Shown in pieces: positions 16,001 through 33,734 of a DNA stretch of 64,000 bases (its first letter is position 1; every line of letters begins with the position of its first letter). Both the position numbers and the translations under genes were made by a program. The notes under the pieces are model-generated. The model did no database searches. It was not told where the DNA came from and saw only the letters and a list, made by a program, of their open reading frames with translations. The DNA comes from an uncultured Acidobacteriota bacterium (GTDB taxonomy: Bacteria; Acidobacteriota; UBA6911). Where the stretch lies: assembly GCA_963839475.1 (NCBI GenBank), contig CAWIVH010000005.1, positions 10,357 to 74,356 of the forward strand. The letters are read 5' to 3'.

Positions 16001-16261
16001 CGGCCCCACATCGTGGACCTGCTTAAAAGCGGGAAGATCGACCTGATCATCAACACCCCTCTCGGCCGGCAGTCGCACTATGACGAAAAGGCGATCCGGC
16101 GCGCCGCGACCACTCATATGGTGCCCTGTATAACCACTCTCTCCGGTGGCGCGGCGGTGGTCAGCGCGATCCGGGCGCTTCGGAGGGAAAAGCTCACCGT
16201 TCGGAGCCTGCAGGAGTATCACGGCCTTTTCAAGGAGCACGCTGCGCACCCCCACAAATGA
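13016..16261 (+). CDS. carB: carbamoyl-phosphate synthase large subunit
   Basis: [30 protein letters not shown], duplicated ATP-grasp domains, C-terminal MGS domain; 1081 aa. Confidence 0.99.
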
Positions 16262-16367
16262 GTTTTGCAGTAATTGCCGCCCCAATCAACGAACGCGAGG
16301 ATCGGGGCCGGGAAGACTGGATATTCCGATCCGCTCGCGCTGCCGAAAAATAGACCCTCCATTTGGC

Positions 16368-16394
16368 TAAAGCATTGCAGAATTTACACGATAA
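16368..16394 (+). promoter_or_regulatory. sigma28 (FliA/SigD)-type promoter upstream of cheA
   Basis: TAAA-N15-CACGATAA versus consensus TAAA-N15/16-GCCGATAA. Confidence 0.65.
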
Positions 16395-16441
16395 GAACCA
16401 CTTGAGCCTTCATTGAAGGGCCATGCATTGGGGCAACACAA

Positions 16442-18700
16442 ATGGAGAATGAGGAAATGAGTCATCCAACGCTGGGGGAAGGACCGGAGCGTTCATTGGA
16501 CGATGCACTCTCCCTTCTCATTCAAATTGAACCTTCCGAAAGGGAAGGATTCCACCGCCTTCATGAAATCCTGGAGCAGCTTGTAACCCATCACCGTTAC
16601 TCGGGACAGGCGCACGATTTAATTGCCGGCGCGAAAAAAAGTGTCCAGGACCTCCTGGAGGGACGAGTCGCAGACCCGCTCCAGGTCCTCCAGGACATTT
16701 CCATCGTGCTGGAGTCCGCAAGCTACTTGTTGGAGGATCTCTCGGTCAAATCAGAATCTTCGGCGCCAGCCCCGGCGAACCCTACGTGCCAATCGAAATC
16801 CGATCCGACGCCGGAAAATACATTGGCAGCGAAGCCTCAGCCTGCGCCGGCGACGCCAACTGGAGCCCTCGAAAGCGAGGCTCTCGCGCCGGAACCTCTC
16901 CCTCCCGACACCGATGCCGATTTGCTCAATGAGTTCGTGGTTGAGTCCAAGGAACTCCTGGAGCGAGCCGAGGTGGCTCTTCTCAGCCTCGAAACCAATC
17001 CGCAGGACGCTGAAGCTGTCAACACGATCTTTCGTGGTTTCCACACGATCAAGGGAACCTCGGCATTTCTCGGGCTGACGCGCATGTCCGGGTTGGCCCA
17101 TTGTGCGGAATCGCTGCTGAGTCGCGTCCGGGATAACGAAATCCGCTGCACAGGAGGATACGCCGACCTGGCCCTGCGCTCCGTGGATATGCTCAAGAGC
17201 CTTGTCCAGAGCGTTCAGAATGCCCTGGGTGGCGGCTTGATGACCGTGCCTCCCAAATACGAGGAACTCAAGTCGCTGCTCGCGAATCCCGAGGCGGCTG
17301 GCATTTCAGCGGAGCACGGTCCCGATTCGGGCGAGCCCGCACCGGCAAAAATGACAGAGAGGGAAGAATGGGATGCAGAGATCGAACATGCCGGGGAGCC
17401 GGTCACTCATGCCGATGAGGAGAAGGTCCAGGAGCCTCCTCCATTTAGAACCCCTGCATCCGGCCAGGCTGGGGGCGCCGCTCCCTCCCCGGTTCGTGCT
17501 GCCAAACTTGAGAAACAGGCCGATTCGTCGGTTCGCGTAAGCACCGACCGGTTGGACCGGCTGGTGGATATGGTGGGGGAACTTGTCATCGCCGACTCGA
17601 TGGTGGCACAGGATGACAGGGTGAGGCAGGGTGGAAACCACGATCTGATGCGCAAAGTCTCTCACCTCGGGAAAATAGTGCGAGAGCTGCAGGACCTCGC
17701 CATGTCGATGCGCATGGTGCCGCTCAAAGCCACATTTCAGAAAATGGGGCGGCTGGTGCGAGACCTGTCCCACAAAAGCGGCAAGAAGGTCCATCTCATC
17801 ACTGAGGACAACGATACCGAAATCGACCGGAACATGGTCGATATCATCAATGATCTGCTCGTACACATGGTGCGGAATTCAGTGGATCATGGCATAGAGC
17901 ACCCTGACGACAGGAAACGTACCAGCAAAGATGAGATGGGGACGGTCTTCCTGTCGGCCTCCCACTCCGGCGGAAATGTCGTCGTCCAGATCCGAGACGA
18001 CGGCAAAGGGCTGGATCGAAACCGGATATTCCAGAAGGCGGTCGAAAAAGGACTGGTGGACTCCGACAAGCCCATGTCCGACGCCGATGTCTTCAACCTG
18101 ATTTTTGCCCCGGGCTTCTCCACCGCTGACAAGGTCACAGACGTCTCCGGGCGCGGGGTTGGGATGGATGTTGTGCGCAAGGGGGTGGAGGCACTACGAG
18201 GCAGGATCGATATCCTATCGGAATTCGGCAAGGGGTGCATTTTTACGGTGCGGCTACCTTTAACGCTTGCCGTCACCGACGGCATGCTGATCCGGGTGGG
18301 GCAGGAACGTTATATCGTGCCAACAGCCAACATTCACTTGAGCTTCAGGCCGGAACCCGGCTCACTATCCACGATTGCCTCCAGAGGCGAGATGGTCATG
18401 CTGCGCGGGGAACTCATGCCCATGTTCCGCCTGCATAATTTGTTCAACATAGTTGGAGCGGTAGAAGATCCGACCAAGGGATTGCTGGTAGTCGTGGGTG
18501 ATGGAGAGCGCCGCTGCACGATCTTGGTCGATGAGTTGTTGGGGCAACAGCAGGTGGTCGCGAAATCTCTAGGTGAAGGATTGGGGAAAATTCAGGGCGT
18601 TTCGGGCGCCGCCATTCTTGGCGACGGCCGTGTGGGTCTGATAATCGATCCTTCGGAAGTAATCCAGACGGCAAGGCAATCTTCCGGCGTCACCGCCTGA
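16442..18700 (+). CDS. cheA: chemotaxis histidine kinase CheA
   Basis: HPt FRGFHTIKG, dimerisation RVSTDRLDRLVDMVGELV, HATPase HMVRNSVDHGIE/DDGKGL/GFST/GRGVGMDVV, C-terminal CheW domain. Confidence 0.97.
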   Translation: MENEEMSHPTLGEGPERSLDDALSLLIQIEPSEREGFHRLHEILEQLVTHHRYSGQAHDLIAGAKKSVQDLLEGRVADPLQVLQDISIVLESASYLLEDLSVKSESSAPAPANPTCQSKSDPTPENTLAAKPQPAPATPTGALESEALAPEPLPPDTDADLLNEFVVESKELLERAEVALLSLETNPQDAEAVNTIFRGFHTIKGTSAFLGLTRMSGLAHCAESLLSRVRDNEIRCTGGYADLALRSVDMLKSLVQSVQNALGGGLMTVPPKYEELKSLLANPEAAGISAEHGPDSGEPAPAKMTEREEWDAEIEHAGEPVTHADEEKVQEPPPFRTPASGQAGGAAPSPVRAAKLEKQADSSVRVSTDRLDRLVDMVGELVIADSMVAQDDRVRQGGNHDLMRKVSHLGKIVRELQDLAMSMRMVPLKATFQKMGRLVRDLSHKSGKKVHLITEDNDTEIDRNMVDIINDLLVHMVRNSVDHGIEHPDDRKRTSKDEMGTVFLSASHSGGNVVVQIRDDGKGLDRNRIFQKAVEKGLVDSDKPMSDADVFNLIFAPGFSTADKVTDVSGRGVGMDVVRKGVEALRGRIDILSEFGKGCIFTVRLPLTLAVTDGMLIRVGQERYIVPTANIHLSFRPEPGSLSTIASRGEMVMLRGELMPMFRLHNLFNIVGAVEDPTKGLLVVVGDGERRCTILVDELLGQQQVVAKSLGEGLGKIQGVSGAAILGDGRVGLIIDPSEVIQTARQSSGVTA

Positions 18701-18938
18701 TGCGGTTGGCGGAGTTTTAGCCGGTCGTGCCTCATCGCATATGTAGGCCGGATGTGCCCTCGAGAGCAAGCAGAGGAAAGTGAAAATACTACTGGAGATC
18801 GACAAGGTTTTGGCGACTCAGGAAGTCGTTGCCCTTCATGCGGCTTCCTAGGAGATTGGGAAGTCGTGGGGCAGCGGCCGGGCTCGGTTCCTGGATGCGG
18901 GGTTTTGAACGATACAACGAACATCAGGCAGGTAAGCT

Positions 18939-19421
18939 GTGAGACATGTAGTGGCAGTAGCCGACATGAAGATCTCCAATCAGCCGGGTGATGAAATAAT
19001 TACCTTTGCGCTGGGGAGCTGCCTCGGGATCACCGTTTACGATCCCGTCGCATTTGTCGGCGGGATGCTTCATGTGATGCTGCCGCTTTCGACTATCGAT
19101 CCAACCAAGGCTGCCGAGAATCCTTACATGTTTGTCGACACGGGAGTGCCTAGACTGTTCCTGGAAAGCTACAAAGCCGGCGCTTCGAAACAGCGGCTCG
19201 AGGTGAAAGTGGCCGGAGGGGCGTGCCCAAACGGGAAGGAGGACGACGACTACTTTCAAATCGGCAAAAGGAATTTTGTAATGCTCCGGAAGCTTCTGTG
19301 GAAAAACGGGGTTCTGCTCAAATCCAGCGACGTTGCCGGAACCCATTCGCGGACCATGAGCCTGGATATTGCAACGGGCAAAGTCAGTCTACGAATCAAT
19401 GGAGCTATAACGCAGCTCTGA
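18939..19421 (+). CDS. cheD: chemoreceptor glutamine deamidase CheD
   Basis: TFALGSCLGITVYDP, GGMLHVMLP, KVAGGA, IGKRN, DVAG..SRT. Confidence 0.95.
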   Translation: MRHVVAVADMKISNQPGDEIITFALGSCLGITVYDPVAFVGGMLHVMLPLSTIDPTKAAENPYMFVDTGVPRLFLESYKAGASKQRLEVKVAGGACPNGKEDDDYFQIGKRNFVMLRKLLWKNGVLLKSSDVAGTHSRTMSLDIATGKVSLRINGAITQL

Positions 19422-19452
19422 AAACCAATGCACCAAGTGAAGGAAACGGCTC

Positions 19453-20517
19453 GTGATCAAAGTCCTCATTGTGGATGATTCTGCGGTTGTACGCAAAGTG
19501 CTGACGGAAGAGCTCTCCAAATATGAAGATATAGAAGTGGTAGGGACCGCCATCGATCCCTATGTGGCACGCGAAAAAATCGTGAGCCTCCGTCCGGATG
19601 TCCTTACCCTCGACCTGGAAATGCCCCGCATGGACGGCCTGTCGTTCCTGTCGAGGCTGATGAAGCATTTCCCCCTGCCTGTTGTCGTCGTGAGTTCTCT
19701 GACTCCTCAGAATAGCGCTACGGCGCTCAGAGCCCTTGAACTAGGCGCCGTGGAAGTCGTGTCCAAGCCGGGATCGCAGTTTTCGATTCCTGACGTTCAC
19801 CGGCAGTTGATCCGGGCGATTAGAGCCGCTGCATCGGCTCAGGTCGGTGCCCTGAAATCCTCTGGAATTTCTGCGGGGACGGCTTCGGAAACCCCGTCGG
19901 TGCGCCTGTCTCCGCTGCATACCACCCACAAGGTGGTCGCCATTGGCGCTTCCACGGGTGGGACGCAAGCCCTGGAGGTGGTCCTGCAGCAAATGCCGGC
20001 GGATGCGCCCGGGACCGTAATCGTGCAGCACATGCCGGAGTTTTTCACTCAGTCTTTCTCCGAGCGCCTGAACAAAGTCTGCCGGATGGAAATCCGTGAA
20101 GCCAAGGACAGGGATGATGTCGTTCCCGGCGTGGTGCTGATTGCCCCCGGAAACCGCCATATGGTTTTGCAGGTGAGCGGTGCGCGATATGCGGTCCGCA
20201 TCAAGGATGGCCCGCCGGTCTACCACCAGCGGCCCAGTGTGGATGTGCTTTTCCAGTCGGTCGCTGAAAATGCGGGCCCCAATGCCGTTGGCGCCATACT
20301 GACAGGGATGGGCGCCGATGGGGCGAAAGGGCTGCTGGCGATGAGGAAAGCCGGTGCTCACACCCTGGCTCAAGACGAGCAGAGCTGCGTGGTTTTCGGG
20401 ATGCCCAAGGAGGCCATCAAGCTGGGTGCCGCGGAAACGATTGTTTCCCTCCAACAGGTAGCCGGAACCATCCTGAGGCTGGTGAACGAACGCCCGGGAA
20501 TACCCATTCGTGAATAG
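19453..20517 (+). CDS. cheB: chemotaxis methylesterase CheB (REC plus esterase)
   Basis: N-terminal receiver; catalytic GASTGG, VQHMP, LTGMGADGA. Confidence 0.97.
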   Translation: MIKVLIVDDSAVVRKVLTEELSKYEDIEVVGTAIDPYVAREKIVSLRPDVLTLDLEMPRMDGLSFLSRLMKHFPLPVVVVSSLTPQNSATALRALELGAVEVVSKPGSQFSIPDVHRQLIRAIRAAASAQVGALKSSGISAGTASETPSVRLSPLHTTHKVVAIGASTGGTQALEVVLQQMPADAPGTVIVQHMPEFFTQSFSERLNKVCRMEIREAKDRDDVVPGVVLIAPGNRHMVLQVSGARYAVRIKDGPPVYHQRPSVDVLFQSVAENAGPNAVGAILTGMGADGAKGLLAMRKAGAHTLAQDEQSCVVFGMPKEAIKLGAAETIVSLQQVAGTILRLVNERPGIPIRE

Positions 20518-20520
20518 GGA

Positions 20521-20988
20521 TTAGATCGCGGCTTCCTCGCTGCAGTAAAGCTCGATTTCCGCCCTACCAAAATCCAGGCCCAGGTTCGCCCGGGCGGCTA
20601 AACGGCCGCTTCCGGGCGAGACCGGATCGGCAGGATTGGCAAATACAACAGGCGCATCGAGATCAAAGACGAGCGCGCTTCCGGCAATCGCCGGCAGAAG
20701 GTTGCCGCATATAACATTAGCCGTTTCTTTGAGCGCATCCTCCTGCATTTCTTTGCTCGGGTCCGCATCGTCGCCAAGCATGTTGGACGCCAGCGCGGGC
20801 ACCACTTCACCGTAAATCCTGATCAGCAGGCTGCCGGCAAAAGGGCCGCGAAAAGACACGGCAACCGTGGCTTCCAGCAAGCTGTCTTTCTGCGCCTGGC
20901 TGATCTCGCGCGAGGACAGGATAAATCCAAGATCCTCAAAAATCTGCGCCGCTGTCCGGTAAAGGACCGCCTCCGTCTGCTTGTTCAT
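20521..20988 (-). CDS. cheX: CheX-like phosphatase (copy 1)
   Basis: VSFRGPFAG, DALKETANVICGNLL (ExxN), FDLDAP. Confidence 0.8.
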   Translation of the reverse strand: MNKQTEAVLYRTAAQIFEDLGFILSSREISQAQKDSLLEATVAVSFRGPFAGSLLIRIYGEVVPALASNMLGDDADPSKEMQEDALKETANVICGNLLPAIAGSALVFDLDAPVVFANPADPVSPGSGRLAARANLGLDFGRAEIELYCSEEAAI

Positions 20989-21364
20989 CCGCCATTCCTG
21001 TCATTCGAAAAATGGTTGAGCGAAGCGCTTCAGGCGTGAAGGGCTTGTGAACGAACTCCACGCCTTTGCGCTGAAGCAATTCAATTCTTGCCTGGCTGGT
21101 TTCCGTGGAAATGACTACGATCGGAGTTGCGGCCAAATCCGGATCCTGCCGCACACGGTCGATCATTTGCTCCCCGTTCATGATTGGCATATTGATGTCC
21201 ACCAAGGCCAGGTCAACCCAGTTCGATTTCAGCGATTCGAGCCCCTCCTGGCCGTTAGAAGCCTGATAGACCTCCCCCAAAGGCAGACCGGTCAGGCGCA
21301 ATACGCGGATCACCATGTTACGCATTACCGCGCTATCATCGACAACCAGTACATTCAGCGACAT
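20936..21364 (-). CDS. CheY-like single-domain response regulator
   Basis: VLVVDDS, LVDINMPIMNG, VISTE, HKPFT; 53-nt overlap with cheX copy 1. Confidence 0.9.
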   Translation of the reverse strand: MSLNVLVVDDSAVMRNMVIRVLRLTGLPLGEVYQASNGQEGLESLKSNWVDLALVDINMPIMNGEQMIDRVRQDPDLAATPIVVISTETSQARIELLQRKGVEFVHKPFTPEALRSTIFRMTGMADEQADGGGPLPDSGADF

Positions 21365-21436
21365 TCTTATCTCCGATATTCAGTTTCGGGGACTTGATTC
21401 CTTCAGCACTCCGGATGGAAGCCTGCGAATCGCCTA

Positions 21437-22276
21437 TCAGCCACTTTTTCTAAAATCCTGAAGCCAGATTGAGGTTTGGGCACAGACTCTTTCGAAGCCT
21501 TCGATCGTCAGCCCGATGCGTTCCCGGCAACCCGCGTCGTCGATGCGCATGTTGAGGGCAGCGGCCCCCAGTCCCACACCGATGGATTTCGCGGCCAGAT
21601 TCGCGAGCATTACCGCATCCAGGATCGGGGTCGGCTTTTCCGCCGGGTACAGGTGATGCATTTCAATGGCGTTTGTGATGTCTTCAGGAAAGCCCCATCG
21701 TCTGGCCATTGCGCCTCCGATCTCGGCGTGATCGCACCCGAAGAGCACCCGCTCGGCTTCTACAAACGACAACCTTCGTTCCTCGCAGGTTTCCAGAATC
21801 TTCGCTACGCTCGCTTCCAGGTAGCGCACCATGATCAGCTTGCCTATGTCGTGAACCAGAGCGGCGATTCCCGCCGCTTCGGGCACCTTCGATGGACGCG
21901 TTTCCTTGATGATCGCCTTCACTGCCAAAGAGGCGGCAGCGCCATGAAGCCATAAATCATCTTCAGATAGCTCATAGAGCGGCGCCGAGGCCTTCATCGA
22001 ACGGAAATGCTCGCCCAGCACCAGGTTCAGCAGCGTGGTGGTTCCAAGGCGAATGACAGCGTCGCGCACCCGATCAATCTGAAACCGGCCGCCATAGGCC
22101 GCCGAATTTGCCGCTCTCAGAATATTGGAGGCGACGGCGGCGTCATACTCGACTATCTGAATGATTTCCGCCGTACTCAGATCCTCACGGTTCAGGGCGA
22201 CGATCAACTTCTGCACCGTGATTGGAAGCGGGTCCAGGCGCTTGACGCCGGTCAAGAGTTTTTCAGGTATAGCCAT
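21437..22276 (-). CDS. HDOD domain protein
   Basis: LDPLP, YDAAVASNILRAANSAAY, AVIRLG, LVHDIGKL, DHAEIGGAMARRWGFPEDITNAIEMHH. Confidence 0.92.
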   Translation of the reverse strand: MAIPEKLLTGVKRLDPLPITVQKLIVALNREDLSTAEIIQIVEYDAAVASNILRAANSAAYGGRFQIDRVRDAVIRLGTTTLLNLVLGEHFRSMKASAPLYELSEDDLWLHGAAASLAVKAIIKETRPSKVPEAAGIAALVHDIGKLIMVRYLEASVAKILETCEERRLSFVEAERVLFGCDHAEIGGAMARRWGFPEDITNAIEMHHLYPAEKPTPILDAVMLANLAAKSIGVGLGAAALNMRIDDAGCRERIGLTIEGFERVCAQTSIWLQDFRKSG

Positions 22277-22314
22277 GCGAAATCGCCCTCTGGCCGCCAA
22301 CCGGCCAGTATTCC

Positions 22315-22341
22315 ATATCGGCCGTTTTCAAAATCGCTATA
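22315..22341 (-). promoter_or_regulatory. sigma28-type promoter upstream of HDOD gene
   Basis: Minus strand TATA-N15-GCCGATAT, with a perfect SigD-type -10. Confidence 0.65.
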
Positions 22342-22470
22342 GGTTGTTGTTGGGCACGCAAATACCGCCAGCGGTGCTGGTTGCTTTTCCAGTCCCACTA
22401 GCCTTGAATCCAGTCTGCTCAGGGCGCTTGCAGCCGCCTTTGTTAGCCGGGCAAATCCGGGGCAGCTCAA

Positions 22471-23688
22471 TCAGGCTGTGGATGCCGGGACCGGCGCATC
22501 CAGGGCGCTGGCAAGCGAACTGAAAACCGGAAAGTCCTTCGTTTCCGAACTCTGCCCCAGGAATTCACGCACTTTTTCGGACTCAGAGACAAACCTCAAG
22601 TCAAGTCCGAGTGCCTGAATCTCATAAATAAGGTTGTGAAAGCGTCTCACAATGGCGACTCCCGATATGATTCCCGCCGATACCTGGATCACCAGGCGGC
22701 TCTGGCCGGATTCGGCCATTCGCCTGATTTCCCCGATTACTTCGGTGGCTAGCGACTGCACGAATCCGGCGAAATCCGGATCCCCGCCCTCGGGACATGA
22801 CAGGATTCGTGCCTCTCCCGACCGTGACAGGCATCCCTCTTCCACCTCGTCCGCGGGATAGAATCCGTTCGGCTGCATCGGCTTTTCGATCAGTTTGACG
22901 ACCTCCTCACGCGTGAAGGGGATCAACAAAAACTCAATGATACCCTTGGCCTTGTAATCGAGGATCGGCCGCAAAGCCGTTCTCAAAGCCATCCCGACGA
23001 CCCGTTTGCCGCGCATCATTTTTTTATGGGTCAGCTGAAATGTCTCGAAAATCTCCGCCGTTCCGTTGTTGGGAAGGGTCAGGTTCAGGAACAGCCAATC
23101 ATGGTGGCCCGATGCTATCTTTTTCATCGCCATGCCATTATTGGTTTCCGTTTCAAGGTCGAATCTATCGCCCATGTAGTCGCGCAGCATTTTAAGCAGC
23201 TCTTCATTATGGTCCACTGCCAGGACCTTGGTTTTGGCGGGGCCCGCTTTCGCCGCGGCGTTCGCCTGCACTTCCGCTTCGGTCGGCGGCGTTTCACCTG
23301 CATAGAGCTCAAGTACCGGATTGACTTTGGACAGCAGCACTTCGCGAGTGAACGGTTTGGCGATGTAGTCTTTCAAGCCAAGCTTGATCAATTTGAAAAC
23401 AGTCTCCTTGACTGTTTCGGTGGTCAGCATCATGACTGGAATCGGTTTCAAGGCCGGATCGGTTTTCAGTTCGACCAGGGTGTGGTAGCCGTCCAGTACC
23501 GGCATGTTGTAATCCAGGAGGATGAGATCCGGCTTTTCCTTTTGCGCAACAGCAACGCCGACCTGGCCGTTCTCAGCCTCGAGAATCTCCACTCCGAAAG
23601 GTCGCAAATGCTTGCCCACGATCATGCGAAGTGTTTTGCTATCGTCAATGGTCAGGATTTTTTTCATAGCCGTTCTTGGCTCCTTCAA
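22471..23688 (-). CDS. response regulator with REC, pseudo-REC and C-terminal STAS-like domain
   Basis: Canonical REC (TIDDS, LLDYNMP, AKPF); second REC-like domain (AVDH, FLNLTLP, LIPF); C-terminal region with STAS-like pattern ending FPVFSSLASAL. Confidence 0.75.
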   Translation of the reverse strand: MKEPRTAMKKILTIDDSKTLRMIVGKHLRPFGVEILEAENGQVGVAVAQKEKPDLILLDYNMPVLDGYHTLVELKTDPALKPIPVMMLTTETVKETVFKLIKLGLKDYIAKPFTREVLLSKVNPVLELYAGETPPTEAEVQANAAAKAGPAKTKVLAVDHNEELLKMLRDYMGDRFDLETETNNGMAMKKIASGHHDWLFLNLTLPNNGTAEIFETFQLTHKKMMRGKRVVGMALRTALRPILDYKAKGIIEFLLIPFTREEVVKLIEKPMQPNGFYPADEVEEGCLSRSGEARILSCPEGGDPDFAGFVQSLATEVIGEIRRMAESGQSRLVIQVSAGIISGVAIVRRFHNLIYEIQALGLDLRFVSESEKVREFLGQSSETKDFPVFSSLASALDAPVPASTA

Positions 23689-23718
23689 TAATTTTGTATT
23701 TCTGAAACCGGGATGACG

Positions 23719-24210
23719 CTATCGGGATTTCTCAACCACCAATTGAACCCTGAATTGGTACTTGCCGGCCAGGACCCCGACCTGCAGGTTCTGAGCATCG
23801 GCCGGCGGATAAGTTGAATATTCCCTTCCTTCAATCACGGAAGGCATCGAGAGCTTGAATGCCTCCCCGTCCTGGCTGAGATTGTTTTTCAGTCCGCCGG
23901 CGAGCATGTTGACCAGTTCTCCGGCCGCGTCCCTGACGGTTTCATCCACGTCCTCTATTTCCGTTCCAAGGAGGCCGGATGCCAAAAGGCACGCGTTTTG
24001 CCGGTCAAAATGCAATGCCAAAAAACCGGAAATTTTTCCCGCAAATCCGATGATCGAGGACAAACCGATTTCACCCGTAATGCTTTCGGCGGGAACCAGG
24101 CCGGCCTGCTCGCTGTACATGTTCGCGAATATGTCCTTGGCTGCAGAATCGATGCCCGCCACAAAATCAGGGTGAATATCCGTCGTCGGAACGGAAACAG
24201 GAATGTGCAT
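23719..24210 (-). CDS. cheX: CheX-like phosphatase (copy 2)
   Basis: SSIIGFAG, DAAGELVNMLAGG (ExxN), LSMPSVIEG; ATG 24210 with GGAGGA RBS. Confidence 0.88.
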   Translation of the reverse strand: MHIPVSVPTTDIHPDFVAGIDSAAKDIFANMYSEQAGLVPAESITGEIGLSSIIGFAGKISGFLALHFDRQNACLLASGLLGTEIEDVDETVRDAAGELVNMLAGGLKNNLSQDGEAFKLSMPSVIEGREYSTYPPADAQNLQVGVLAGKYQFRVQLVVEKSR

Positions 24211-24236
24211 AGATGTCCTCCAATCAACACACCTCT

Positions 24237-24264
24237 TTATCGGAGTCGGCGTTGGCATCCATTA
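24237..24264 (-). promoter_or_regulatory. sigma28-type promoter upstream of cheX copy 2
   Basis: Minus strand TAAT-N16-TCCGATAA. Confidence 0.6.
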
Positions 24265-24502
24265 CCAAAAGAATCCGGAAAAGAGCGGGCCGCGTTTTGG
24301 GGTGTGTTGAACGTCGCTTGGAAGGGGTTTGGCTGCCTCTCCGGATGGAGCGGAATGGGATGGAAATCGCAGAGCAAGATGAAAGTCCTGCTTGACTTCG
24401 AGCGCTCGCTCACCACGAGCGGCCTTGCCGAATTTCGAGCGGCTAAAATACCGAAAGGCGAGGTTTTGAGGTGATTCTTGGTAGAGACGGGAGGGAAGTT
24501 TC

Positions 24503-24530
24503 TAAATTAGGGAGGTGAAACTGTCGATAT
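24503..24530 (+). promoter_or_regulatory. sigma28-type promoter upstream of cheR
   Basis: (C)TAAA-N16-GTCGATAT. Confidence 0.6.
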
Positions 24531-24594
24531 ACTTTAGCAATCGTCACTGGGGAAGAAAGTCCCAGTACCGGCCCGTGCCCGGAAATTGGAAGGA

Positions 24595-25461
24595 ATGATG
24601 GGGATCGAAAGCCCACTGGAAGACTCGTCGCCCTGGAATTCTGCCGAACTTACGGATCGTCATTTCCGGGTGATCAGCGGCATTCTCCACCAAAGATGCG
24701 GCATCAAGCTGACGGAAGGTAAGGAAGGACTGGTCAAAGCCAGGCTGTCCAAACGGCTTCGTCATCTGGGCCTCGGTGGTTTTGATCAGTACCTTGATTA
24801 TCTGAACAGTGATGCGGGTTCGGGCGAACTGTACACGATGATCGATTCCCTTACGACCAACAAAACGAGTTTTTTCCGCGAAGACGCTCATTTTCATTTC
24901 CTGCGCGACCATATTCTGCCCGCTGTGCGCCAGCAGGGAGGCAGACTGAGGATTTGGAGCGCGGCATGCTCATCGGGGGAAGAGCCCTATTCCATTGCAC
25001 TTCTGCTGAAGAACGTTTGGCCCGATATCCAAAAGTGCGATGTAAAAATCCTGGCCACCGACATCTCCGCGCGTGTGCTGGACCAGGCCAAATCGGGAAT
25101 TTACAGTGGGGAAGCAGTAGCGGACGTTCCCCGTCCGATGCTTGAGCGATATTTCACCGCTTGCGGTTCGGCAGCCAATCGAGAGTTCAAGATCAACGAT
25201 GAGGTAAGATCGCTCATTCGCTTCGCACGCCTTAACCTGATGGAGGAATGGCCCATGACGGGGCCGTTCAACCTGATCTTCTGCCGGAATGTGATGATCT
25301 ATTTCGACAAAGAGACACAGAAGAAACTTGTTCGCAGATTTTGGGAACTGCTCGAGACCGATGGGTACCTTTTTGTAGGTCATTCGGAGAGCCTTACCGC
25401 TACCTCCAAAGACTATAGGTATATTCAGCCGGCAACCTACCGAAAACACTGCATGTGCTGA
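24595..25461 (+). CDS. cheR: chemotaxis methyltransferase CheR
   Basis: LTTNKTSFFRE, RIWSAACSSGEEPYSIA, ATDIS, FCRNVMIYFD, LFVGHSE. Confidence 0.97.
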   Translation: MMGIESPLEDSSPWNSAELTDRHFRVISGILHQRCGIKLTEGKEGLVKARLSKRLRHLGLGGFDQYLDYLNSDAGSGELYTMIDSLTTNKTSFFREDAHFHFLRDHILPAVRQQGGRLRIWSAACSSGEEPYSIALLLKNVWPDIQKCDVKILATDISARVLDQAKSGIYSGEAVADVPRPMLERYFTACGSAANREFKINDEVRSLIRFARLNLMEEWPMTGPFNLIFCRNVMIYFDKETQKKLVRRFWELLETDGYLFVGHSESLTATSKDYRYIQPATYRKHCMC

Positions 25462-25793
25462 TGGAGCTCTGCAATGACGTCAACCCGGCTGAGGAACGCC
25501 TGCCGCATCTTCATGGCAATGTCTGAACATATGTTGATTTAAATAAAGTATTTGAGCCAACTTATCTAAAGCATTACTTGAAGTATTGCCCTTCTTTCCG
25601 GATAACGATATCCTCCTAATTCCGCCTGATCTTGCCCGTGCTGTCTTTCCCTGGATCGAGGGGTGCAGTTTGAATCCGGCAAACCGACGCAGCCCTGGCC
25701 AGCAAAGCCAAAGAGCCTTTTGACCGAAGCGGGCGATCGGCTGAAAAAAATAACTCCAAATCTCCATCCGAAGTTTTGCAGCTGAGTACTTTC

Positions 25794-25821
25794 TAAAGAA
25801 GAATCGGTCGGCTGCCGAAAT
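25794..25821 (+). promoter_or_regulatory. sigma28-type promoter upstream of MCP
   Basis: (C)TAAA-N16-GCCGAAAT. Confidence 0.6.
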
Positions 25822-25948
25822 AGCCTAGGTGCGCGGATCTTGGTGAATTTTCGCACGCGCTGCAATTTCTGATGATTCCGGATTGTCATGCGAAAACAGG
25901 CAAAATCCTACTCAGCAGACCGGCTTCGACAACGATGAGGATATCGGT

Positions 25949-28591
25949 ATGGGATTCAAAGGTTTGAAAAGTCTCGCCCTTAAGATTGTAGTTTCAGTCG
26001 CCGCTGTGACCATCATCGGCATAGGTACTCTTACATATCTCCAGATGCAGAAGAACGAAGCATTATTCCTATCGAATCTGGAAGAATCTACTGCCGACCT
26101 GAATAGCACCATCCTGGCTGCCCTGAAAAACGGCATGCTTAAAAATGACACCGAAGGAGTTGATAAGCTGGTCGAGCAGACTGGGAAGATCGCTACCATC
26201 AAGCAGATCTTCATAACGGACGAGACCGGAAAAATTACCCGGACTTCCGGTAGCAATAAGGGAACGATGATCGATGCCGCGCTGATGAAAAGTACGACAG
26301 CGTCTTCCGCAGGCGTTTCAAAAATGGCCACGGCGGGCGATGGTTCGCCCTATGTTTCCAGCTTCAGCCCAATCCGCGCTGAAAAGGACTGCCTGACCTG
26401 TCACTCCCAGAAGGAAGGTGAGCCTCTGGGCTACATCAGCGTTGATGCCTGGGCTAAGCGCGGATACGAACAATTGAGCGCTGCCCGAAACATGTCGCTT
26501 CTGCTCGGGCTGATCATCATGCTTCTGATGACCGTGGCAATTTACTTCGTCGCCCAATCGATGGCAAAACCGCTGGTCAAGCTCTCCGATAATGCGCGCA
26601 ATATAGCCATGGGCGACTTTGAGCAGAATATCGGCCACCACTCGGTGGATGAAATCGGGGTCCTCGCGGATTCTTTCCGAGCCCTCCGATCTTATGCCAA
26701 GGAAGCAGCTTCGGCCGCGGAAGCGCTCGGAAACGGAGATCTATCCGTCCAGGTTAAGCCTAAATCCGAGCGCGACGTCCTCTCCCTGAGTCTTAAACAT
26801 GCGATCGAGACCCAGCAAAAGCTGGCCGCTGAGACTGGAAAGCTCAGCCAGGCTGCCATTGATGGAAAATTGTCAATCCGGGGAGATTCCACGCAGTTCA
26901 ATGGCTGTTATCGCGACCTCGTCCAGGGGATCAACAACACGCTCGATGCGGTTATTGGCCCGCTGCAGGTGGCGGCGAACTACGTAGACCGGATCTCGAA
27001 GGGAGACATCCCAACGCGGATCGCAGACAAGTACAACGGGGATTTCAACGAGATCAAGAACAACCTGAACACCTGCATCGACGCGGTAAACATGCTGGTG
27101 GCGGACGCCGCGATGCTGTCTAAAGCTGCTGTGGAAGGAAAGCTTGATACCCGGGCGGATGCGGCGAAGCATGGCGGAGACTTCCGCAAGATCGTGCAAG
27201 GTGTGAACGACACGCTGGATGCGGTGATCGGGCCGCTGAAAGTGGCGGCGAACTACGTGGACCGGATCTCGAAGGGTGACATCCCGGCGAAGATCACCGA
27301 TAAATACAGCGGGGACTTCAACGAGATCAAGAACAACGTGAACACTTGCATCGACGCGGTGAACCTGCTGGTAGGGGATGCGAACATGCTGGCGAATGCG
27401 GCGGTGGAAGGGAGGCTGCAGACGCGGGCGGAGGCGGCGAAACACGGCGGGGACTTCCGGAGGATCGTGCAGGGAGTGAACGACACGCTCGATGCCGTGA
27501 TCAGCCCTGTGAACGAGGCGGCGGAGGTTCTGGAGAAGGTCGCGGCGAAGGACCTGACTGCGCGGGTGAAAGGTGACTACCGGGGAGACCTGGCGAAGCT
27601 GAAGAACGTGCTGAACCAGGCGGTGCAGAACCTGGATGATGCGCTGACGCAGGTGATGTTCGGGGCGGAGCAGGTGACATCGGCGGCGACGCAGATCAGC
27701 GCGGGGAGCCAGTCGTTGTCGCAGGGGGCGTCCGAGCAGGCAAGCTCGCTGGAAGAAGTATCGTCGAGCCTGCAGGAGATGTCGTCAATGACGAAGCAGA
27801 ACGCGGCGAACGCGAAGGAAGCGCGAGGGCTATCAGACGGGGCGAGGTCGTCGGCGGAGAAGGGCGTGGAGAGCATGAAGCGGTTGTCGGAGGCGATCGC
27901 AAAGATCAAGGGGAGTTCCGACGCGACGGCCAAGATCGTGAAGACGATCGACGAGATCGCGTTTCAGACAAACTTGCTGGCGCTGAACGCGGCGGTGGAA
28001 GCGGCGCGTGCGGGGGATGCGGGGAAGGGGTTTGCGGTGGTGGCCGAGGAGGTGCGGAACCTGGCGATGAGAAGCGCAGAGGCGGCGAAGAACACGGCTA
28101 ACCTGATCGAGGAGTCGGTGAAGAACGCGGAAGGCGGAGTATCGATCAACCAGGAGGTGCTCAAGCAGCTGGTGGAGATCAACGGACAGGTGAACAAGGT
28201 AAGCGAGGTAATGGCGGAGATCGCGGCGGCGTCGGACCAGCAAAGCCAGGGTGTGACGCAGGTAAACACGGCGGTGGAGCAAATGAACCAGGTGACGCAA
28301 CAGACAGCGGCGAACGCGGAGGAATCGGCGAGCGCGGCGGAAGAGCTGTCGGGGCAGTCTGAGGAGATGAAGGGGATGGTGGCAACCTTCAGGCTTTCGA
28401 CGGTTGCGGCGGGCAGCGGGCATCGCGGGGGAACTGCAAAAACCACATTGAGGGTTCAGATGCCGCAGAGGCGGCTGGCGGTGCCGAGGCCTGGAACTGC
28501 GAAACCCGCTCCCGCAGCGGCGTGGGGCCCATCTCCGGCAAAGCTGATACCTCTGGATGACGATGAAGAGCTTATCCTGAAAGAGTTTTAG
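25949..28591 (+). CDS. methyl-accepting chemotaxis protein with CxxCH periplasmic sensor and poly-HAMP region
   Basis: TM1, periplasmic domain with KDCLTCH, TM2, HAMP repeats, signalling hairpin [35 protein letters not shown]; ATG 25949 chosen. Confidence 0.96.
26941..27486 (+). repeat. 273-bp (91 aa) tandem intragenic repeat encoding HAMP pairs
   Basis: GCT(C/G)GATGC recurs at 26941, 27214 and 27487; unit [42 protein letters not shown]. Confidence 0.9.
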
Positions 28592-28606
28592 TCCGTGGGG
28601 GACAGG

Positions 28607-28644
28607 AAGCCCGGGCTGGTCTGAAATGCCGGCTCGGGCTTTTT
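28607..28644 (+). terminator. intrinsic terminator-like hairpin between mcp and cheW
   Basis: AAGCCCGGGCTGG-loop-CCGGCTCGGGCTT followed by a T run. Confidence 0.7.
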
Positions 28645-28684
28645 GAATCGGGAGTTGCAGGGTGAGCCAGGAAGGGAGCCATCG

Positions 28685-29191
28685 ATGGTCGCAGTAAACG
28701 CAAAGCGAATCGATTCGGGGAGCATATCCGGGACGGTTGGAGGCAAGTTTTTAACATTTTTCCTCGCAGCGGAAGAGTACGGGATCGAGATCCTGAAGGT
28801 GCATGAGATCATCGGGATGATGCTGATCACGAGCGTGCCGCGCACACCGGAGTTCATCCGGGGAGTAATCAACCTGCGAGGGAAGGTGATTCCGATCGTA
28901 GACTTGAGGCTGAAGTTCGGAATGGAGCCAAAGGAAAAGACCGAGGAAACCTGCATCATCGTCGTGCATGTGGAGGGAGTAGAAATCGGGATCATGGTGG
29001 ACCGGGTGTCCGAGGTGCTGAACATCGCATCCGAGGAAATAGAAGCCCCCCCGTCATTCGGTGCTGATGTCAACACGGATTTCATTCTGGGATTGGGAAA
29101 ATCGCAAGGCAAGGTCAAGATCCTGCTCGATATCGATCGCGTGTTGTCCGCGAGCGAACTTATCGACATCAGTGGGGCCAAAGTATCGTAG
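28685..29191 (+). CDS. cheW: chemotaxis adaptor CheW
   Basis: FLTFFLAAEEYGIEI, VPRTPEFIRGVINLRGKVIPIVDL, GIMVDRVSEV, LLDIDRVL. Confidence 0.96.
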   Translation: MVAVNAKRIDSGSISGTVGGKFLTFFLAAEEYGIEILKVHEIIGMMLITSVPRTPEFIRGVINLRGKVIPIVDLRLKFGMEPKEKTEETCIIVVHVEGVEIGIMVDRVSEVLNIASEEIEAPPSFGADVNTDFILGLGKSQGKVKILLDIDRVLSASELIDISGAKVS

Positions 29192-29266
29192 AAATGAATG
29201 CATCCCGGGCTTTATAAAAGCACGGCTAAGTACCGCACCGATCCCGAGTGCAGCCGGGGGGCGAAA

Positions 29267-29755
29267 TCAGATGGCTTGTGTGATCAATTGGACCAGAAAA
29301 CGATGAGTCCCCGCGGTAACTCCCAACATCATATTCTGCGCATTCACGGGTGGGTAGGTTTTGTACCCTTTCCCTTCAATCACCGTTGGAATGGATATTT
29401 TCAAGGTATCCTTGGCGCCGCTGATCCGGTTTTTAAATCCGCCGGCGACCATGTTCGCCATTTCACCCATAGCGTCCCGGATCATCTCATCGCCCTCCTG
29501 AACTTCCATTCCCAGAAGAGCCGAGGCGATTTTGCTCGCCGAACTGCGGCTGAAGTGCAGGCTTAATACTCCTGACATGTTGCCGGCGAACCCGATGATG
29601 GCAGACATCCCTATTTCCCCCGGTACTTCTTCCTTGGGGATGAGGCTCGCCTGCTCGCTGAACATGCTTAGGAAGATCTCCTTGAGCGTCTGATCGATTT
29701 CGTTCTTGAAGTCGGGTGGCGCAATGCTTCCCTGCATTGGCGATGGGCCATGCAT
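29267..29755 (-). CDS. cheX: CheX-like phosphatase (copy 3; close paralogue of copy 2)
   Basis: SAIIGFAG, DAMGEMANMVAGG (ExxN), ISIPTVIEG. Confidence 0.88.
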   Translation of the reverse strand: MHGPSPMQGSIAPPDFKNEIDQTLKEIFLSMFSEQASLIPKEEVPGEIGMSAIIGFAGNMSGVLSLHFSRSSASKIASALLGMEVQEGDEMIRDAMGEMANMVAGGFKNRISGAKDTLKISIPTVIEGKGYKTYPPVNAQNMMLGVTAGTHRFLVQLITQAI

Positions 29756-29795
29756 AGAGATCCCTCCTCACCATTCCATGGTAATCATGAAACCA

Positions 29796-29823
29796 TTATC
29801 GGTGGATGCCGTCGATATCTTTA
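29796..29823 (-). promoter_or_regulatory. sigma28-type promoter upstream of cheX copy 3
   Basis: Minus strand TAAA-N16-ACCGATAA. Confidence 0.68.
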
Positions 29824-30049
29824 CCGAATAGTGACAGTGCTTACGGAGTCAGGAAGGCCGCTCGGGACCAATGGGGCGCAGATCGTCATAAACACATCCG
29901 CGTTGATTAGATAAAGTATTTTATGGTTTGCGGGTTGCGCCAGACCATCCAATGCAAAGCTCCATGAAATGAGGTGTGGGCTTAACGGATAGGAAAGGAT
30001 ACCTGCTGCAGGGGAATGGGAAAACTCCGGCAGAAGGGACGGCTTTAGG

Positions 30050-30526
30050 TTACGGTTTCGGTTCCGGCGGAGACTCCGGATTCTCTTCCGTTGCTTTTTG
30101 GGGGTCGGCCTCTGGTTGTCGGGCCGGGTTTTCCTGCCCGGGCATCCCGATGTTTGGGAACAGTTCGAATGCCGTGCCTTCGTGAATCAGATGCACACCT
30201 TCGGTTTGAAGCCTCACGAAGTGGGTGCAGTATTTTCGGCTGTCCCCCCCCATGCAGTGATCCACGCAGAATAGATCGGTATCCGTGCAGTTGACGCATT
30301 CGCCCAGGGAAACGCACACCTTGGGAACTGTGATCCCGCAGGTGCTGCACAGGGTGAAGAGGTTTTCGCTTTCAACATAACGGTCGCAGCTGGGCAGTGC
30401 CGAGTTGTTCTCCAGGTAGCCGTAAATTCGGCAGCCCATGAAGATATGGCTTCCGCCGCTCCCGGCAGCTTCGATCTGTGCCAGGCTTTCATCCAGCCAG
30501 TTGATGCAATTCCTGCAATTGATCAT
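30050..30526 (-). CDS. cysteine-rich hypothetical protein
   Basis: 158 aa; 12 Cys in the first ~100 aa (three CxxC, one CxxxC); acidic Pro-rich tail; 40 nt downstream of glmU. Confidence 0.7.
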   Translation of the reverse strand: MINCRNCINWLDESLAQIEAAGSGGSHIFMGCRIYGYLENNSALPSCDRYVESENLFTLCSTCGITVPKVCVSLGECVNCTDTDLFCVDHCMGGDSRKYCTHFVRLQTEGVHLIHEGTAFELFPNIGMPGQENPARQPEADPQKATEENPESPPEPKP

Positions 30527-30565
30527 GGTCCGGTATCATTTCTGCCGCATCCATCAGGCGACGCC

Positions 30566-31957
30566 TCATTTTTCAGGCGATCTGTTCCTCCGGTTCCGGC
30601 TGCGCCATTCCAACTTGTTAACCTGTCTCTCCCGAGCAATTCCCAGGGCGTTCGCAGGGACATCTTGAGTAATGCAACTGCCGGCGGCGATGGCGGCGTC
30701 CCGGCCAATTCGGACTGGAGCTACCAGCTGGCAACCCGAACCGATAAACGCACCATCCTCGATTATGGTAGCATTCTTGGCGACGCCGTCAAAATTGCAG
30801 GTAATGGTCCCAGCTCCAACATTTACGCCCGAACCGATCACGGCATCCCCAAGATAGGACAAATGGCAAGCGCAGGATCCGGGTCCCATGTGGGTCTTCT
30901 TGATTTCCACAAAGTTGCCGATGCGGCAGCCGGAACCTATATCGGCGTTGTCCCGTAGATGGGCGAAAGGGCCGACAATCGCGCCACTTCCGATGCTGGA
31001 CTCGCAGATAAGGCTGGAATCCAGGACCTGAACTTCGTCGCCAATCTTCGAGTTGCGGATGCGAACATGGGAATGGATCACTGCACCCTCACCGATGATC
31101 GTTTTTCCCTCGAGATGTACCTGCGGGTAGAGAATCGAATCTTTACCCACGATGACCCCGCCGTCGACGTAGGTGTGCGCCGGATCCATGACGGTAACTC
31201 CGGCAGCCATCAATGAAGAGCATTTCTCGCGCCACAGATAGCCCGAAATCCGTGACAATTCCTCGCGGTTGTTGATACCCTGGAGTTCGTCGAAGTCCGC
31301 GTGAAGCAGCGCTTCGATTTTCCTCCCGTCACCTTTTTGAATGCCGATGACATCTGTCAGGTAATATTCCTTTTGAGCGTTGTCGGTGGAAATTCGGGCC
31401 AGCGCATCCAGCAGAAGCGGGATGTCGAAGCAATAAAACGCCGCGTTGATTTCGGTGATTTTCTTTTGCTCCCGGGTGGCGTCCTTTTCCTCCACAATCC
31501 CGGCTACGGTACCGTCCGGCCCGCGCAAAATCCGGCCGTAGCCATAGGGGTTCGGCGGCCGGGTCGTCAGGATAGTGGCTGCCGCCCCGGTTTCGCGATG
31601 GTGCTGTATGAGCTTTTGAAGCGTGGCACTTTTTATTCGCGGAGTGTCGCCCGAGAGCACCAGCAGATCCCCATCGCGTCCTCTGAGATTATCTTGGGCC
31701 GTAAGGACGGCATGGCCGGTTCCCATTTGATTTTCCTGCAGAACGAATGTGGCAGGATGACCCGCCATGCAGTCCCGAACACGGTCGGCATCCTGGCCGA
31801 TTACGATAAAGACCTCTTCGGGCTGCAGATCGAGCGCTGCCCGGTAGACCATTTTCAGCATGGGTTCGCCGCAGATTTCATGGAGAACCTTGGCGCGACG
31901 GCTTACCATCCGCGTGCCTTTCCCGGCAGCCAAAATAAGCGTGCAAATGGATTTCAT
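30566..31957 (-). CDS. glmU: bifunctional UDP-GlcNAc pyrophosphorylase / glucosamine-1-phosphate acetyltransferase
   Basis: LILAAGKGTRM, QMGTGHAV, EYYLTD, hexapeptide repeats, GAGTITCNFDG. Confidence 0.97.
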   Translation of the reverse strand: MKSICTLILAAGKGTRMVSRRAKVLHEICGEPMLKMVYRAALDLQPEEVFIVIGQDADRVRDCMAGHPATFVLQENQMGTGHAVLTAQDNLRGRDGDLLVLSGDTPRIKSATLQKLIQHHRETGAAATILTTRPPNPYGYGRILRGPDGTVAGIVEEKDATREQKKITEINAAFYCFDIPLLLDALARISTDNAQKEYYLTDVIGIQKGDGRKIEALLHADFDELQGINNREELSRISGYLWREKCSSLMAAGVTVMDPAHTYVDGGVIVGKDSILYPQVHLEGKTIIGEGAVIHSHVRIRNSKIGDEVQVLDSSLICESSIGSGAIVGPFAHLRDNADIGSGCRIGNFVEIKKTHMGPGSCACHLSYLGDAVIGSGVNVGAGTITCNFDGVAKNATIIEDGAFIGSGCQLVAPVRIGRDAAIAAGSCITQDVPANALGIARERQVNKLEWRSRNRRNRSPEK

Positions 31958-33197: not shown

Positions 33198-33734
33198 ATG
33201 GGCACTAGCAGCATAGTATTGCATGAAGCCGAATTCTCCCAACTCAAGGCCATACTCGAGAGCACTCAGAAGGATCTCAAGGCCGAATTGGTGCTTCTGA
33301 TTGACAGAAGCGGCCAGCAGATTGCCTCACAGGGCCCGCGAGTCGACATCGACCAGACAGCCTTGGCCACGCTCGCTGCAGCCAATATTGCTGCCACCAA
33401 TGGGCTGGCGCAGGTTGTGGGGGAGCCGTCTTTTTCCACGCTCTTCCATCAGGGAACGAAACGGAGCATTCATATCCTGGATGTGGCGAGATCTCTCTCG
33501 CTGGTGCTGGTTTTTGATCAGAACGTGTCTCCAGGTATGGTTCGATGGAAAGTGAGGCGGGCAGCTGCCTGCCTGGATGAGATTTTCGCAAACCTTCAAA
33601 AGAAACTGGCGTCCGGAAACGTTTCTCCCGTGGCGACCGAGCAGGTTTCCCGCATGTTCAGCGACGAAGAACTGGACGAACTGTTCGACCGTCTTGGCCC
33701 GAAACCGGAAAAGGATCGAAAGGTGCAGCCGTGA
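33198..33734 (+). CDS. mglB: roadblock/LC7 protein MglB (GAP for MglA)
   Basis: [40 protein letters not shown]; GTGA overlap with mglA. Confidence 0.88.

Follow-up and report, generated by a model that had tools for sequence, protein, structure and literature searches.

A chemosensory locus of an uncultured Acidobacteriota bacterium with CheX phosphatases, a stand-alone HDOD protein and a receiver–receiver–STAS-like regulator

A stretch of 64,000 nucleotides (nt) from an uncultured Acidobacteriota bacterium, hereafter referred to as the window, carries a chemosensory cluster of 12 genes within 13.3 kb (positions 16442–29755), and this locus raises the question of which class of pathway it encodes and where its signal would go. 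The initial annotation had described a full core (CheA, CheW, CheB, CheR, CheD and one methyl-accepting chemotaxis protein, MCP), broken up into convergent and divergent units and without a cheY in the cheA-cheD-cheB unit. On the basis of open reading frames (ORFs), translations and Pfam and NCBIfam matches, all twelve genes were found (Table 1), the core proved complete, and the layout was as described. Its four units are cheA-cheD-cheB on the plus strand, cheX2-regulator-HDOD-cheY-like-cheX1 on the minus strand (24258 down to 20521), cheR-mcp-cheW on the plus strand, and cheX3 on the minus strand, the latter being the final gene of a run that also holds orf158 and a glmU-like gene (window order A-D-B / X-Y-HDOD-RR-X / R-M-W / X). 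The cheB and cheX1 genes converge with their stop codons 3 bp apart, and cheX2 and cheR diverge with 327 bp between them. A promoter and terminator scan of positions 16000–30700 yielded counts that were not above those of shuffled sequence, so operon boundaries are drawn here from gene spacing alone.

The reading that we favour, and hold with moderate confidence, is that the cluster is a local, rearranged version of a chemosensory system found conserved among uncultured Acidobacteriota, which would combine an F7-like core with a conserved module for output and signal termination, giving a branched CheA pathway with CheX-terminated outputs. The module consists of a cheY-like gene overlapping cheX1, a gene for a stand-alone HDOD protein, and cheX2 followed by the gene for a regulator made up of a receiver (REC1), a second receiver (REC2) and a domain of divergent STAS fold.

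Conservation of the accessory genes with the core, a criterion set beforehand, was assessed at loci gathered from the contigs of homologues and from a scan of one genome per GTDB species, by comparing the six-frame ORFs of these loci with the twelve window proteins. A full-length regulator homologue of at least 40% identity was present at 23 distinct loci, 14 of which had cheA within 10 kb, and the accessory set recurs with the core at these 14. Proteins of the cheA-linked loci are 36–77% identical to those of the window. All 14 loci carry cheD and cheB, and 13 of them (all except L015) carry the HDOD gene, a count that includes the cut L087 copy seen by Pfam; the cheY-like gene and cheX1 are both present in ten, and the receptor in nine. 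Twelve of the 14 are labelled Acidobacteriota or Terriglobia, one Dissulfurispiraceae, and one (L087) is an unlabelled metagenome contig, while 'Eisenbacteria' have diverged versions (28% identity). The window has a gene order of its own, beside two others that recur elsewhere; the relatives are arranged as W-M-A-R-D-Y-X-B-HDOD-X-RR or in a split order. That 12 chemosensory genes lie within 13.3 kb and that their set recurs at 14 or more other loci is far beyond chance.

The cheX2, regulator and HDOD genes also form a trio apart from any cheA (in L004 and L086), and orphan paralogues of the regulator were found at four loci with full 10-kb flanks. Such loci raise an alternative, namely that the accessory genes form an operon of a different pathway that lies between the che units by coincidence. 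This would be in keeping with the paralogues at the four loci in question (L022–L025), which have no che genes, and with a gene order that varies by lineage. However, the set stays together at 14 distinct loci through at least three gene orders, and CheX is a chemotaxis-specific phosphatase family. Because linkage that outlasts rearrangement points to functional coupling, we disfavour this explanation and consider it very improbable.

The host assignment was examined through the genes around the cluster. The best named matches of CarB are all Acidobacteriota (76–79% identity; best metagenomic match 93%), and the flanking radical SAM, S26 peptidase, Cys-rich orf158, TPR and Roadblock genes are syntenic with five Acidobacteriota loci, which identifies the window as an orthologous, rearranged copy. 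The same two observations rule out a Geobacter-type origin, a candidate that had been raised by the match of the receptor sensor to Mcp40H-20. Among public sequencing runs, the window was detected only in soil, wetland and sediment DNA metagenomes, with at most 14% of its words, and no RNA evidence for it was found in these runs. As a separate observation, L001 (11422–12907) and L002 (3443–5102) contain two more genes, neither of which the window has. One encodes a receiver protein of ~250 amino acids (aa) whose helical C-terminal domain is conserved (L001 versus L002, 55% identity), and the other a short HisKA-only protein. At the same position, the contig of the closest relative (P0002) encodes an Hpt protein and a 246-aa receiver.

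The receptor was analysed with respect to both its class and its sensor. Two hydrophobic segments (residues ~27–55 and ~198–229) enclose a sensor of ~145 residues, after which come five HAMP domains, a 36H signalling domain, a linker of ~55 aa and the C-terminal sequence ILKEF. The signalling domain aligned with residues 269–518 of Escherichia coli Tsr over 250 residues with zero gaps, whereas PDB receptors of classes 44H and 40H required 14 and 28 extra residues, respectively, and because of this gapless alignment the receptor was assigned to class 36H. The pathway had initially been called heme-sensing. A single CXXCH motif is indeed present in the extracytoplasmic domain (CLTCH at ORF residue 170, nt 26390–26404), and it recurs in the nearest subclade (CLTCH in L086, CIECH in L087); it is missing from the orthologous MCPs that were examined from other clusters (15 ORF rows, 11 distinct proteins), so that the name could apply at most to the subclade of the window and is no label for the whole system. 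The sensor also gave a weak, sub-threshold Pfam match to sCache_3_2, and comparison with PDB sequences yielded no meaningful match. Signalling-linked sCache_heme domains bind nitric oxide (NO) tightly and show no O2 binding, according to a 2026 preprint (PMC12889525).

The C-terminal tail of the receptor is kept in its orthologues, which end in LKDF, FGEF, FKDF, FRNF or LREF. This end (28574–28588, plus strand), an acidic residue with a final Phe (LKEF/LKDF) that is also seen in orthologues, is matched by a similar ending of the small receiver, and the two tails might address the same docking partner.

CheR, a possible partner of this tail, scored best in the PDB against the Salmonella CheR (203 bits), followed by Pseudomonas aeruginosa CheR1 (160) and Bacillus subtilis CheR (130). 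In the beta-subdomain, the alignment with CheR1 has a 3-residue gap and that with the Salmonella CheR runs without a gap. We take a longer beta-subdomain without the three-residue deletion to be a mark of pentapeptide-dependent CheRs. The co-occurrence of the conserved receptor tail with a CheR of this beta-subdomain-insert type makes it plausible that the tail tethers CheR. CheA has P1 (Hpt, residues 160–251), P3, P4 and P5, with no P2 recognised by Pfam, and matched the CheA cores of E. coli (346 bits) and Thermotoga maritima (315 bits) in the PDB. It also has an N-terminal helical extension of ~110 aa (window 16442–16770, plus strand), which is kept in 14 orthologues and has no Pfam family match. 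The possibility that this extension is a second Hpt domain, an F4-like feature, was ruled out by hhalign (probability 0.6%). CheD orthologues are 62–72% identical.

These features bear on the class of the core, which the initial annotation had presented as part of a candidate novel system. In the published class table, CheD accompanies 36H receptors only in F7, and CheX is given only for F2 and F3 (PMC9321776); Paludibaculum, a cultured acidobacterium, is listed with an F7 system. Judged by proxies, namely the 36H receptor, CheD and the enteric-type best scores of CheR and CheA, the core looks F7-like, and a position outside the known classes was not borne out. The F7 order Y-A-W...R...B, with cheY beside cheA, is not found in the window. 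The joining of CheX to a CheD/36H core is a combination missing from that table (PMC9321776).

The output module was examined next to this core. All three CheX proteins score above the Pfam cut-off (PF13690, 27 bits), and each carries the motif D-x3-E-x2-N-x21-P with the catalytic Glu and Asn kept, a motif that was retained in 11 of 11 orthologues examined for cheX1 and in 13 of 13 further CheX orthologues. The known CheX active-site consensus, D/S-x3-E-x2-N-x22-P, is one residue longer than the motif of the window proteins. CheX2 and CheX3 are 51% identical, and CheX1 and CheX2 27%. Relatives have two CheX proteins, and CheX3 is therefore, as judged from sequence, a lineage-specific paralogue of CheX2, so the three CheX proteins of the initial annotation are a property of the window and not of the system at large. 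The further claim that two receiver branches each come with a CheX is sustained by conserved gene pairing. On one branch, the overlap of the cheY-like gene with cheX1 measures 53 nt in both the window and L002 and 29 nt in L001; on the other, cheX2 lies immediately upstream of the regulator gene in 10 loci.

The small CheY-like receiver has the full set of phosphorylation residues (DD, D56, T87 and K107) and an aromatic switch residue at K-3. Its C-terminal tail, encoded within the cheX1 overlap (window 20936–20990, minus strand), is kept in 12 orthologues and ends in (G)xDF. The stand-alone HDOD protein keeps the motifs HDIGKL, GCDHAE and HH across 14 aligned orthologues. A CheY-HDOD-CheX triad downstream of cheR was also found in che clusters of Spirochaetales and Myxococcota metagenome-assembled genomes (MAGs), and a CheY-HDOD pair in an Opitutales MAG. 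Fusions of receiver and HDOD domains are known, and together with the recurrence of the triad they suggest that the small receiver may work with the HDOD protein.

The regulator forms the other branch. A search of 5.8 billion proteins returned more than 100 full-length homologues with 44–55% identity, and an AlphaFold2 model based on a 36-sequence alignment resolved three domains with a mean predicted local distance difference test (pLDDT) score of 87. As a whole, the model was matched best in Foldseek by PleD-type tandem receivers. The five catalytic positions of REC1 are essentially invariant among 120 homologues. The DD, D, T and K positions of REC2 are kept in 116–118 of these 120, with 117 homologues having the complete set, and it is in the window protein and an 84%-identical relative that they read DH, N, T and I, with three of the five catalytic residues lost. 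REC2 of the window reaches 16.2 bits in Pfam, below the cut-off of 30.2, and its fold is that of a receiver (AlphaFold2, Foldseek). The C-terminal 125 aa, modelled separately with AlphaFold2 (pLDDT 83), were compared with the PDB by Foldseek, and 18 of the 19 top matches were STAS domains (anti-sigma antagonists, RsbS/RsbR and the SLC26-type transporter SPDT). TM1081 was among these top matches, with RsbV and SpoIIAA lower in the list. A profile of this domain, run against 1.84 billion representatives, collected 54 clusters, mostly C-termini of proteins of ~390 aa or fragments of them. Among PDB sequences, the profile produced only a coiled-coil match to CHMP2A, which was rejected as spurious, so the domain is not identifiable from sequence alone and its probable assignment to STAS is based on the predicted fold. 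The initial description of a REC-pseudoREC-STAS protein thus holds for the window, where receiver fold, degenerate residues and STAS fold are all present; the pseudo-receiver is lineage-specific, and the family is better described as REC-REC-STAS-like.

No homologue of the REC2-STAS half was found in a plasmid collection, and the literature searched yielded no description of REC-STAS fusions or of this system, nor of HDOD or CheX in che clusters of Acidobacteria. Some of the same MAGs contain a second REC-REC-STAS paralogue (40–45% identity) with no che genes within 10 kb (L016, L022, L023, L024 and L025), and the family therefore also appears to work outside a che context. Comparison of orthologues indicates that the putative c-heme (CXXCH) sensor, the degenerate REC2 and the third CheX are the lineage-specific, least conserved parts of the locus. 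The conserved novelty is the double CheX-receiver module together with HDOD and the STAS-like fusion.

From these parts we infer each step of the following mechanism. In this lineage, a periplasmic, putative c-heme sensor resembling sCache_heme would bind a gas or redox ligand, for which NO serves as a precedent, and the signal would pass through the five HAMP domains to the 36H tip and set the activity of CheA. Phosphorylated CheA would then phosphorylate CheB for adaptation, the small receiver, and REC1 of the regulator. Each output receiver would quickly be reset by its adjacent CheX, with CheX3 as extra capacity. Phosphorylation of REC1 would alter the packing of the receiver pair on the STAS-like domain and thereby expose or hide a partner-binding surface, leading to a regulatory output other than a motor. 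The small receiver might act with HDOD, or as a phosphate sink, or address a motility device encoded elsewhere.

A number of findings weigh against this favoured reading. One of them is the receptor, since two transmembrane segments around a periplasmic sensor are the topology that Ortega et al. tie to flagellar, motor-controlling F7 systems, and with this Tar-like topology the system may have a role in motility. In the main rival, plain taxis, the small receiver would control a motor, of a flagellum or type IV pilus, whose genes lie elsewhere in the genome, the CheX proteins would be ordinary CheY-P phosphatases as in spirochaetes and Thermotoga, and HDOD and the regulator would only tune gain, for instance as a phosphate sink. 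CheX-CheY pairs do occur in Verrucomicrobiota, Vampirovibrionales and Myxococcota within che clusters that look conventional, the aromatic switch residue is kept in both receivers, and a Roadblock/small-GTPase pair lies 3.4 kb from cheX3. However, whole-window Pfam annotation of ~50 further ORFs of at least 150 aa revealed no flagellar or pilus family across the 64 kb, and no motor or pilus gene was seen in the listed 10-kb flanks of related loci; the initial claim to this effect stands for the window and says little about the whole genome. Moreover, the regulator is the most constant partner, with its 44–55% identity extending over the full length, which is unexpected for a mere sink, and the cheX2-regulator-HDOD trio persists away from cheA. 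We therefore regard plain taxis as possible, if on the whole unlikely.

Further points of this kind come from the sensor and from the regulator. The sensor reached only sub-threshold scores in Pfam, with 21.1 against a cut-off of 24.1 for the Tll0287-like family (PF11845) and 23.2 against 27 for Mcp40H-20_sensor. The best STAS match in Foldseek had an E-value of 6.7e-4, with template-modelling scores of 0.57–0.73, and the packing between the domains is uncertain in the regulator model (predicted template-modelling score 0.41). Pfam STAS (PF01740) scored 15.3 bits against a cut-off of 22.6, with four of 20 family members reaching E≤0.1, and canonical STAS proteins were absent from the 54 clusters of the profile search of 1.84 billion representatives. 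At the position of the SpoIIAA-type serine, at the start of helix 2, 94 of 120 homologues have Ser, 17 Ala and five Thr. Finally, an RsbW-type kinase, a PP2C phosphatase and a sigma factor were neither found in the window nor conserved in the related loci.

A more specific form of the favoured reading is a classical partner switch, in which the STAS-like domain would be an anti-sigma-factor antagonist gated by aspartyl (not serine) phosphorylation of the fused receiver and would control an alternative sigma factor, as the fused counterpart of gamma-proteobacterial F7 STAS proteins such as CrsR/CrsA in Shewanella. The STAS fold speaks for it, with anti-sigma antagonists, RsbS, RsbV and SpoIIAA among the matches, as do the stage 1 and 2 F7 clusters, where genes for a serine phosphatase and for one or two anti-sigma antagonists accompany cheY, cheA, cheW, aer2, cheR, cheD and cheB (PMC7184735), and the Shewanella Che1 system, which is tied to RpoS through regulation by the CrsR/CrsA pair (PMC9855816). 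A lone SpoIIE-family gene lies ~6 kb away in L004. Conversely, none of the loci has a conserved anti-sigma kinase, PP2C or sigma gene nearby, the domain family is too divergent for a profile match to canonical STAS, and 26 of 120 homologues have another residue in place of the putative phospho-serine. Specifically, no anti-sigma kinase or PP2C was present among the window ORFs of at least 150 aa or the called genes of L001, L002, L086 and L087, and the partner switching put forward in the initial annotation stays conjectural. A sigma-factor switch of this classical form is, in our judgement, doubtful.

Extending the favoured reading, one may see the regulator as a 'Rosetta stone' fusion, which would imply that the original F7-type output was a CheY-gated STAS partner switch and not a motor. 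The Acidobacteriota system, with its two CheX-timed branches and HDOD, would then be a distinct, undescribed class that turns a short-lived NO or redox cue in the periplasm into a regulatory decision through a sigma factor or similar. This is a speculation to which we assign a low probability.

Table 1. Chemosensory genes and regulator domains in the window.
Feature	Positions	Strand	Evidence and remarks
cheA	16442–18700	+	Pfam Hpt, H-kinase_dim, HATPase_c, CheW; 752 aa
cheD, receptor glutamine deamidase	18939–19421	+	Pfam CheD 92.9 bits; NCBIfam CheD models match
cheB, methylesterase with N-terminal receiver	19453–20517	+	Pfam; NCBIfam NF001965 422.5 bits, cut-off 293
cheX1, CheC/CheX-type phosphatase, 155 aa	20521–20988	-	Pfam CheX 44.3 bits
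CheY-like single-domain receiver, 142 aa	20936–21364	-	Pfam; residue check
Stand-alone HDOD protein	21437–22300	-	Pfam HDOD (PF08668) 166.8 bits, cut-off 22.9; probable start Met9, nt 22276
REC-REC-STAS-like regulator (P0001), 398 aa from Met8 (ORF 405 aa, 22471–23688)	22471–23667	-	Homologues, AlphaFold2, Foldseek
Regulator REC1	23308–23667	-	Complete catalytic residues
Regulator REC2, degenerate	22882–23241	-	DH, N, T, I
Regulator STAS-like domain	22474–22848	-	Predicted fold
cheX2	23719–24258	-	Pfam CheX 77.9 bits; immediately upstream of regulator gene
cheR, methyltransferase	24586–25461	+	Pfam
mcp	25883–28591	+	Pfam 2 HAMP, 3 HAMP_2, MCPsignal; probable start Met23, nt 25949
cheW, coupling protein	28643–29191	+	Pfam CheW 136.4 bits
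cheX3	29267–29755	-	Pfam CheX 88.7 bits

In the remainder of the window, Pfam annotated transporters, carAB, sugar and lipid enzymes, a helicase and similar ORFs, and Rfam and tRNA scans of the window gave no matches. The Roadblock/small-GTPase pair (33198–34318, plus strand) is MglB/MglA-like and consists of a Roadblock/LC7 gene (178 aa) followed with a stop/start overlap by a Ras/Arf-like GTPase gene (195 aa); at the corresponding place in L002/L018 there is also a Roadblock gene. The Cys-rich orf158 (30050–30526, minus strand) matches no Pfam family and is 66% identical to a syntenic ORF in L002/L018, and probably represents a genuine metal-binding protein, as yet uncharacterised. At 34960–36550 on the minus strand, the C- and N-terminal parts of one amino-acid permease fall in two overlapping ORFs of different frame (308 and 417 aa, respectively), which suggests a frameshift, reflecting either a pseudogene or an assembly error. 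Elsewhere on the window, an orphan single-domain response regulator of 155 aa (646–1113, plus strand) has no kinase gene among its annotated neighbours, a 973-aa ORF (56841–59762, minus strand) combines a NagZ-like glycoside hydrolase family 3 domain with a serine beta-lactamase/PBP-type domain, and an 844-aa ORF (41759–44293, plus strand) combines AMP-binding, phosphopantetheine-carrier and acyltransferase domains, as in an acyl-ACP synthetase/acyltransferase fusion.

The locus matters in several respects. In the ancestral F7 clusters the link between STAS proteins and CheA is only circumstantial, and a widespread lineage with a receiver-STAS-like fusion guarded by its own CheX offers a direct, testable connection. 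The known accessory repertoire is extended by CheX and HDOD with a CheD/36H core, and a signalling system is documented for Acidobacteriota, an abundant phylum of soils and sediments. In addition, the CheY-HDOD-CheX triad, found in several phyla, provides a handle on the biochemical function of HDOD, a common domain.

Among known systems, the closest comparison is with the ancestral (stage 1 and 2) F7 systems, namely cluster III of Vibrio cholerae, Che2 of P. aeruginosa and Che1 of Shewanella oneidensis with CrsR/CrsA (PMC7184735, PMC9855816). A stage 1 F7 cluster comprises an anti-sigma antagonist, cheY, cheA, two cheW, aer2 (36H), cheR, cheD, cheB, mcpA, a second anti-sigma antagonist and a serine phosphatase, and the function of ancestral F7 systems was called unclear by Ortega et al. 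(PMC7184735). The window shares with these systems a 36H receptor with several HAMP domains and heme (putative in the window), the CheD, CheR, CheB, CheW and CheA proteins, STAS-fold proteins in the cluster, and the absence of adjacent motor genes. It differs in that its STAS-like domain is fused to two receivers, whereas the F7 STAS protein stands alone beside a REC-PP2C protein, and in having two or three CheX proteins and HDOD. The heme of the window would be c-type and bound in a periplasmic, Cache-like domain, in contrast to the b-type heme in the cytoplasmic PAS domain of the F7 receptors, and gene order and host phylum (Acidobacteriota) differ as well.

CheX/CheY pairs of spirochaetes (F2) and Thermotoga have reportedly been described by Park et al. 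in 2004 and by Muff and Ordal in 2008, both cited here through PMC8235581. Like these, the CheX proteins of the window belong to the family above the Pfam cut-off, have the Glu/Asn motif, and include one whose gene lies beside a CheY-like gene. Unlike these, they number three, fall into two divergent types with 27% identity, include one that is paired with a multidomain regulator, and are combined with CheD and a 36H receptor.

The regulator resembles the tandem receivers of PleD, the best structural match of its model, in placing an active receiver before an adaptor receiver; its output domain, however, is STAS-like and not GGDEF, and REC2 is degenerate only in the lineage of the window. In PhyR-NepR, SypE/SypA and HsbR/HsbA, receiver phosphorylation sets the availability of a binding module of the partner-switch type, which is the same logic as that proposed here. 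To our knowledge, these systems neither fuse STAS directly to a receiver nor take their input from CheA with a dedicated CheX.

For the input side, the sCache_heme (DUF3365/Tll0287) sensors, such as those of Geobacter GSU0582 and GSU0935 (PMC12889525, PMC2577667), are likewise periplasmic, lie between two transmembrane helices of an MCP and have a single CXXCH, whereas the Pfam scores of the window sensor are below the cut-offs and it has no PDB sequence match. The 'alpha group' che clusters of Geobacter (PMC2577667) have in common with the window cheA, cheW, cheB, cheR and a stand-alone HD-superfamily protein; they differ in being without an mcp, in having been reported only in Geobacteraceae, and in a single cheX per genome (PMC2577667). 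Against this background, the system is not categorically new and is best described as a variation on an F7-like pathway, set apart by a fused output protein not described before.

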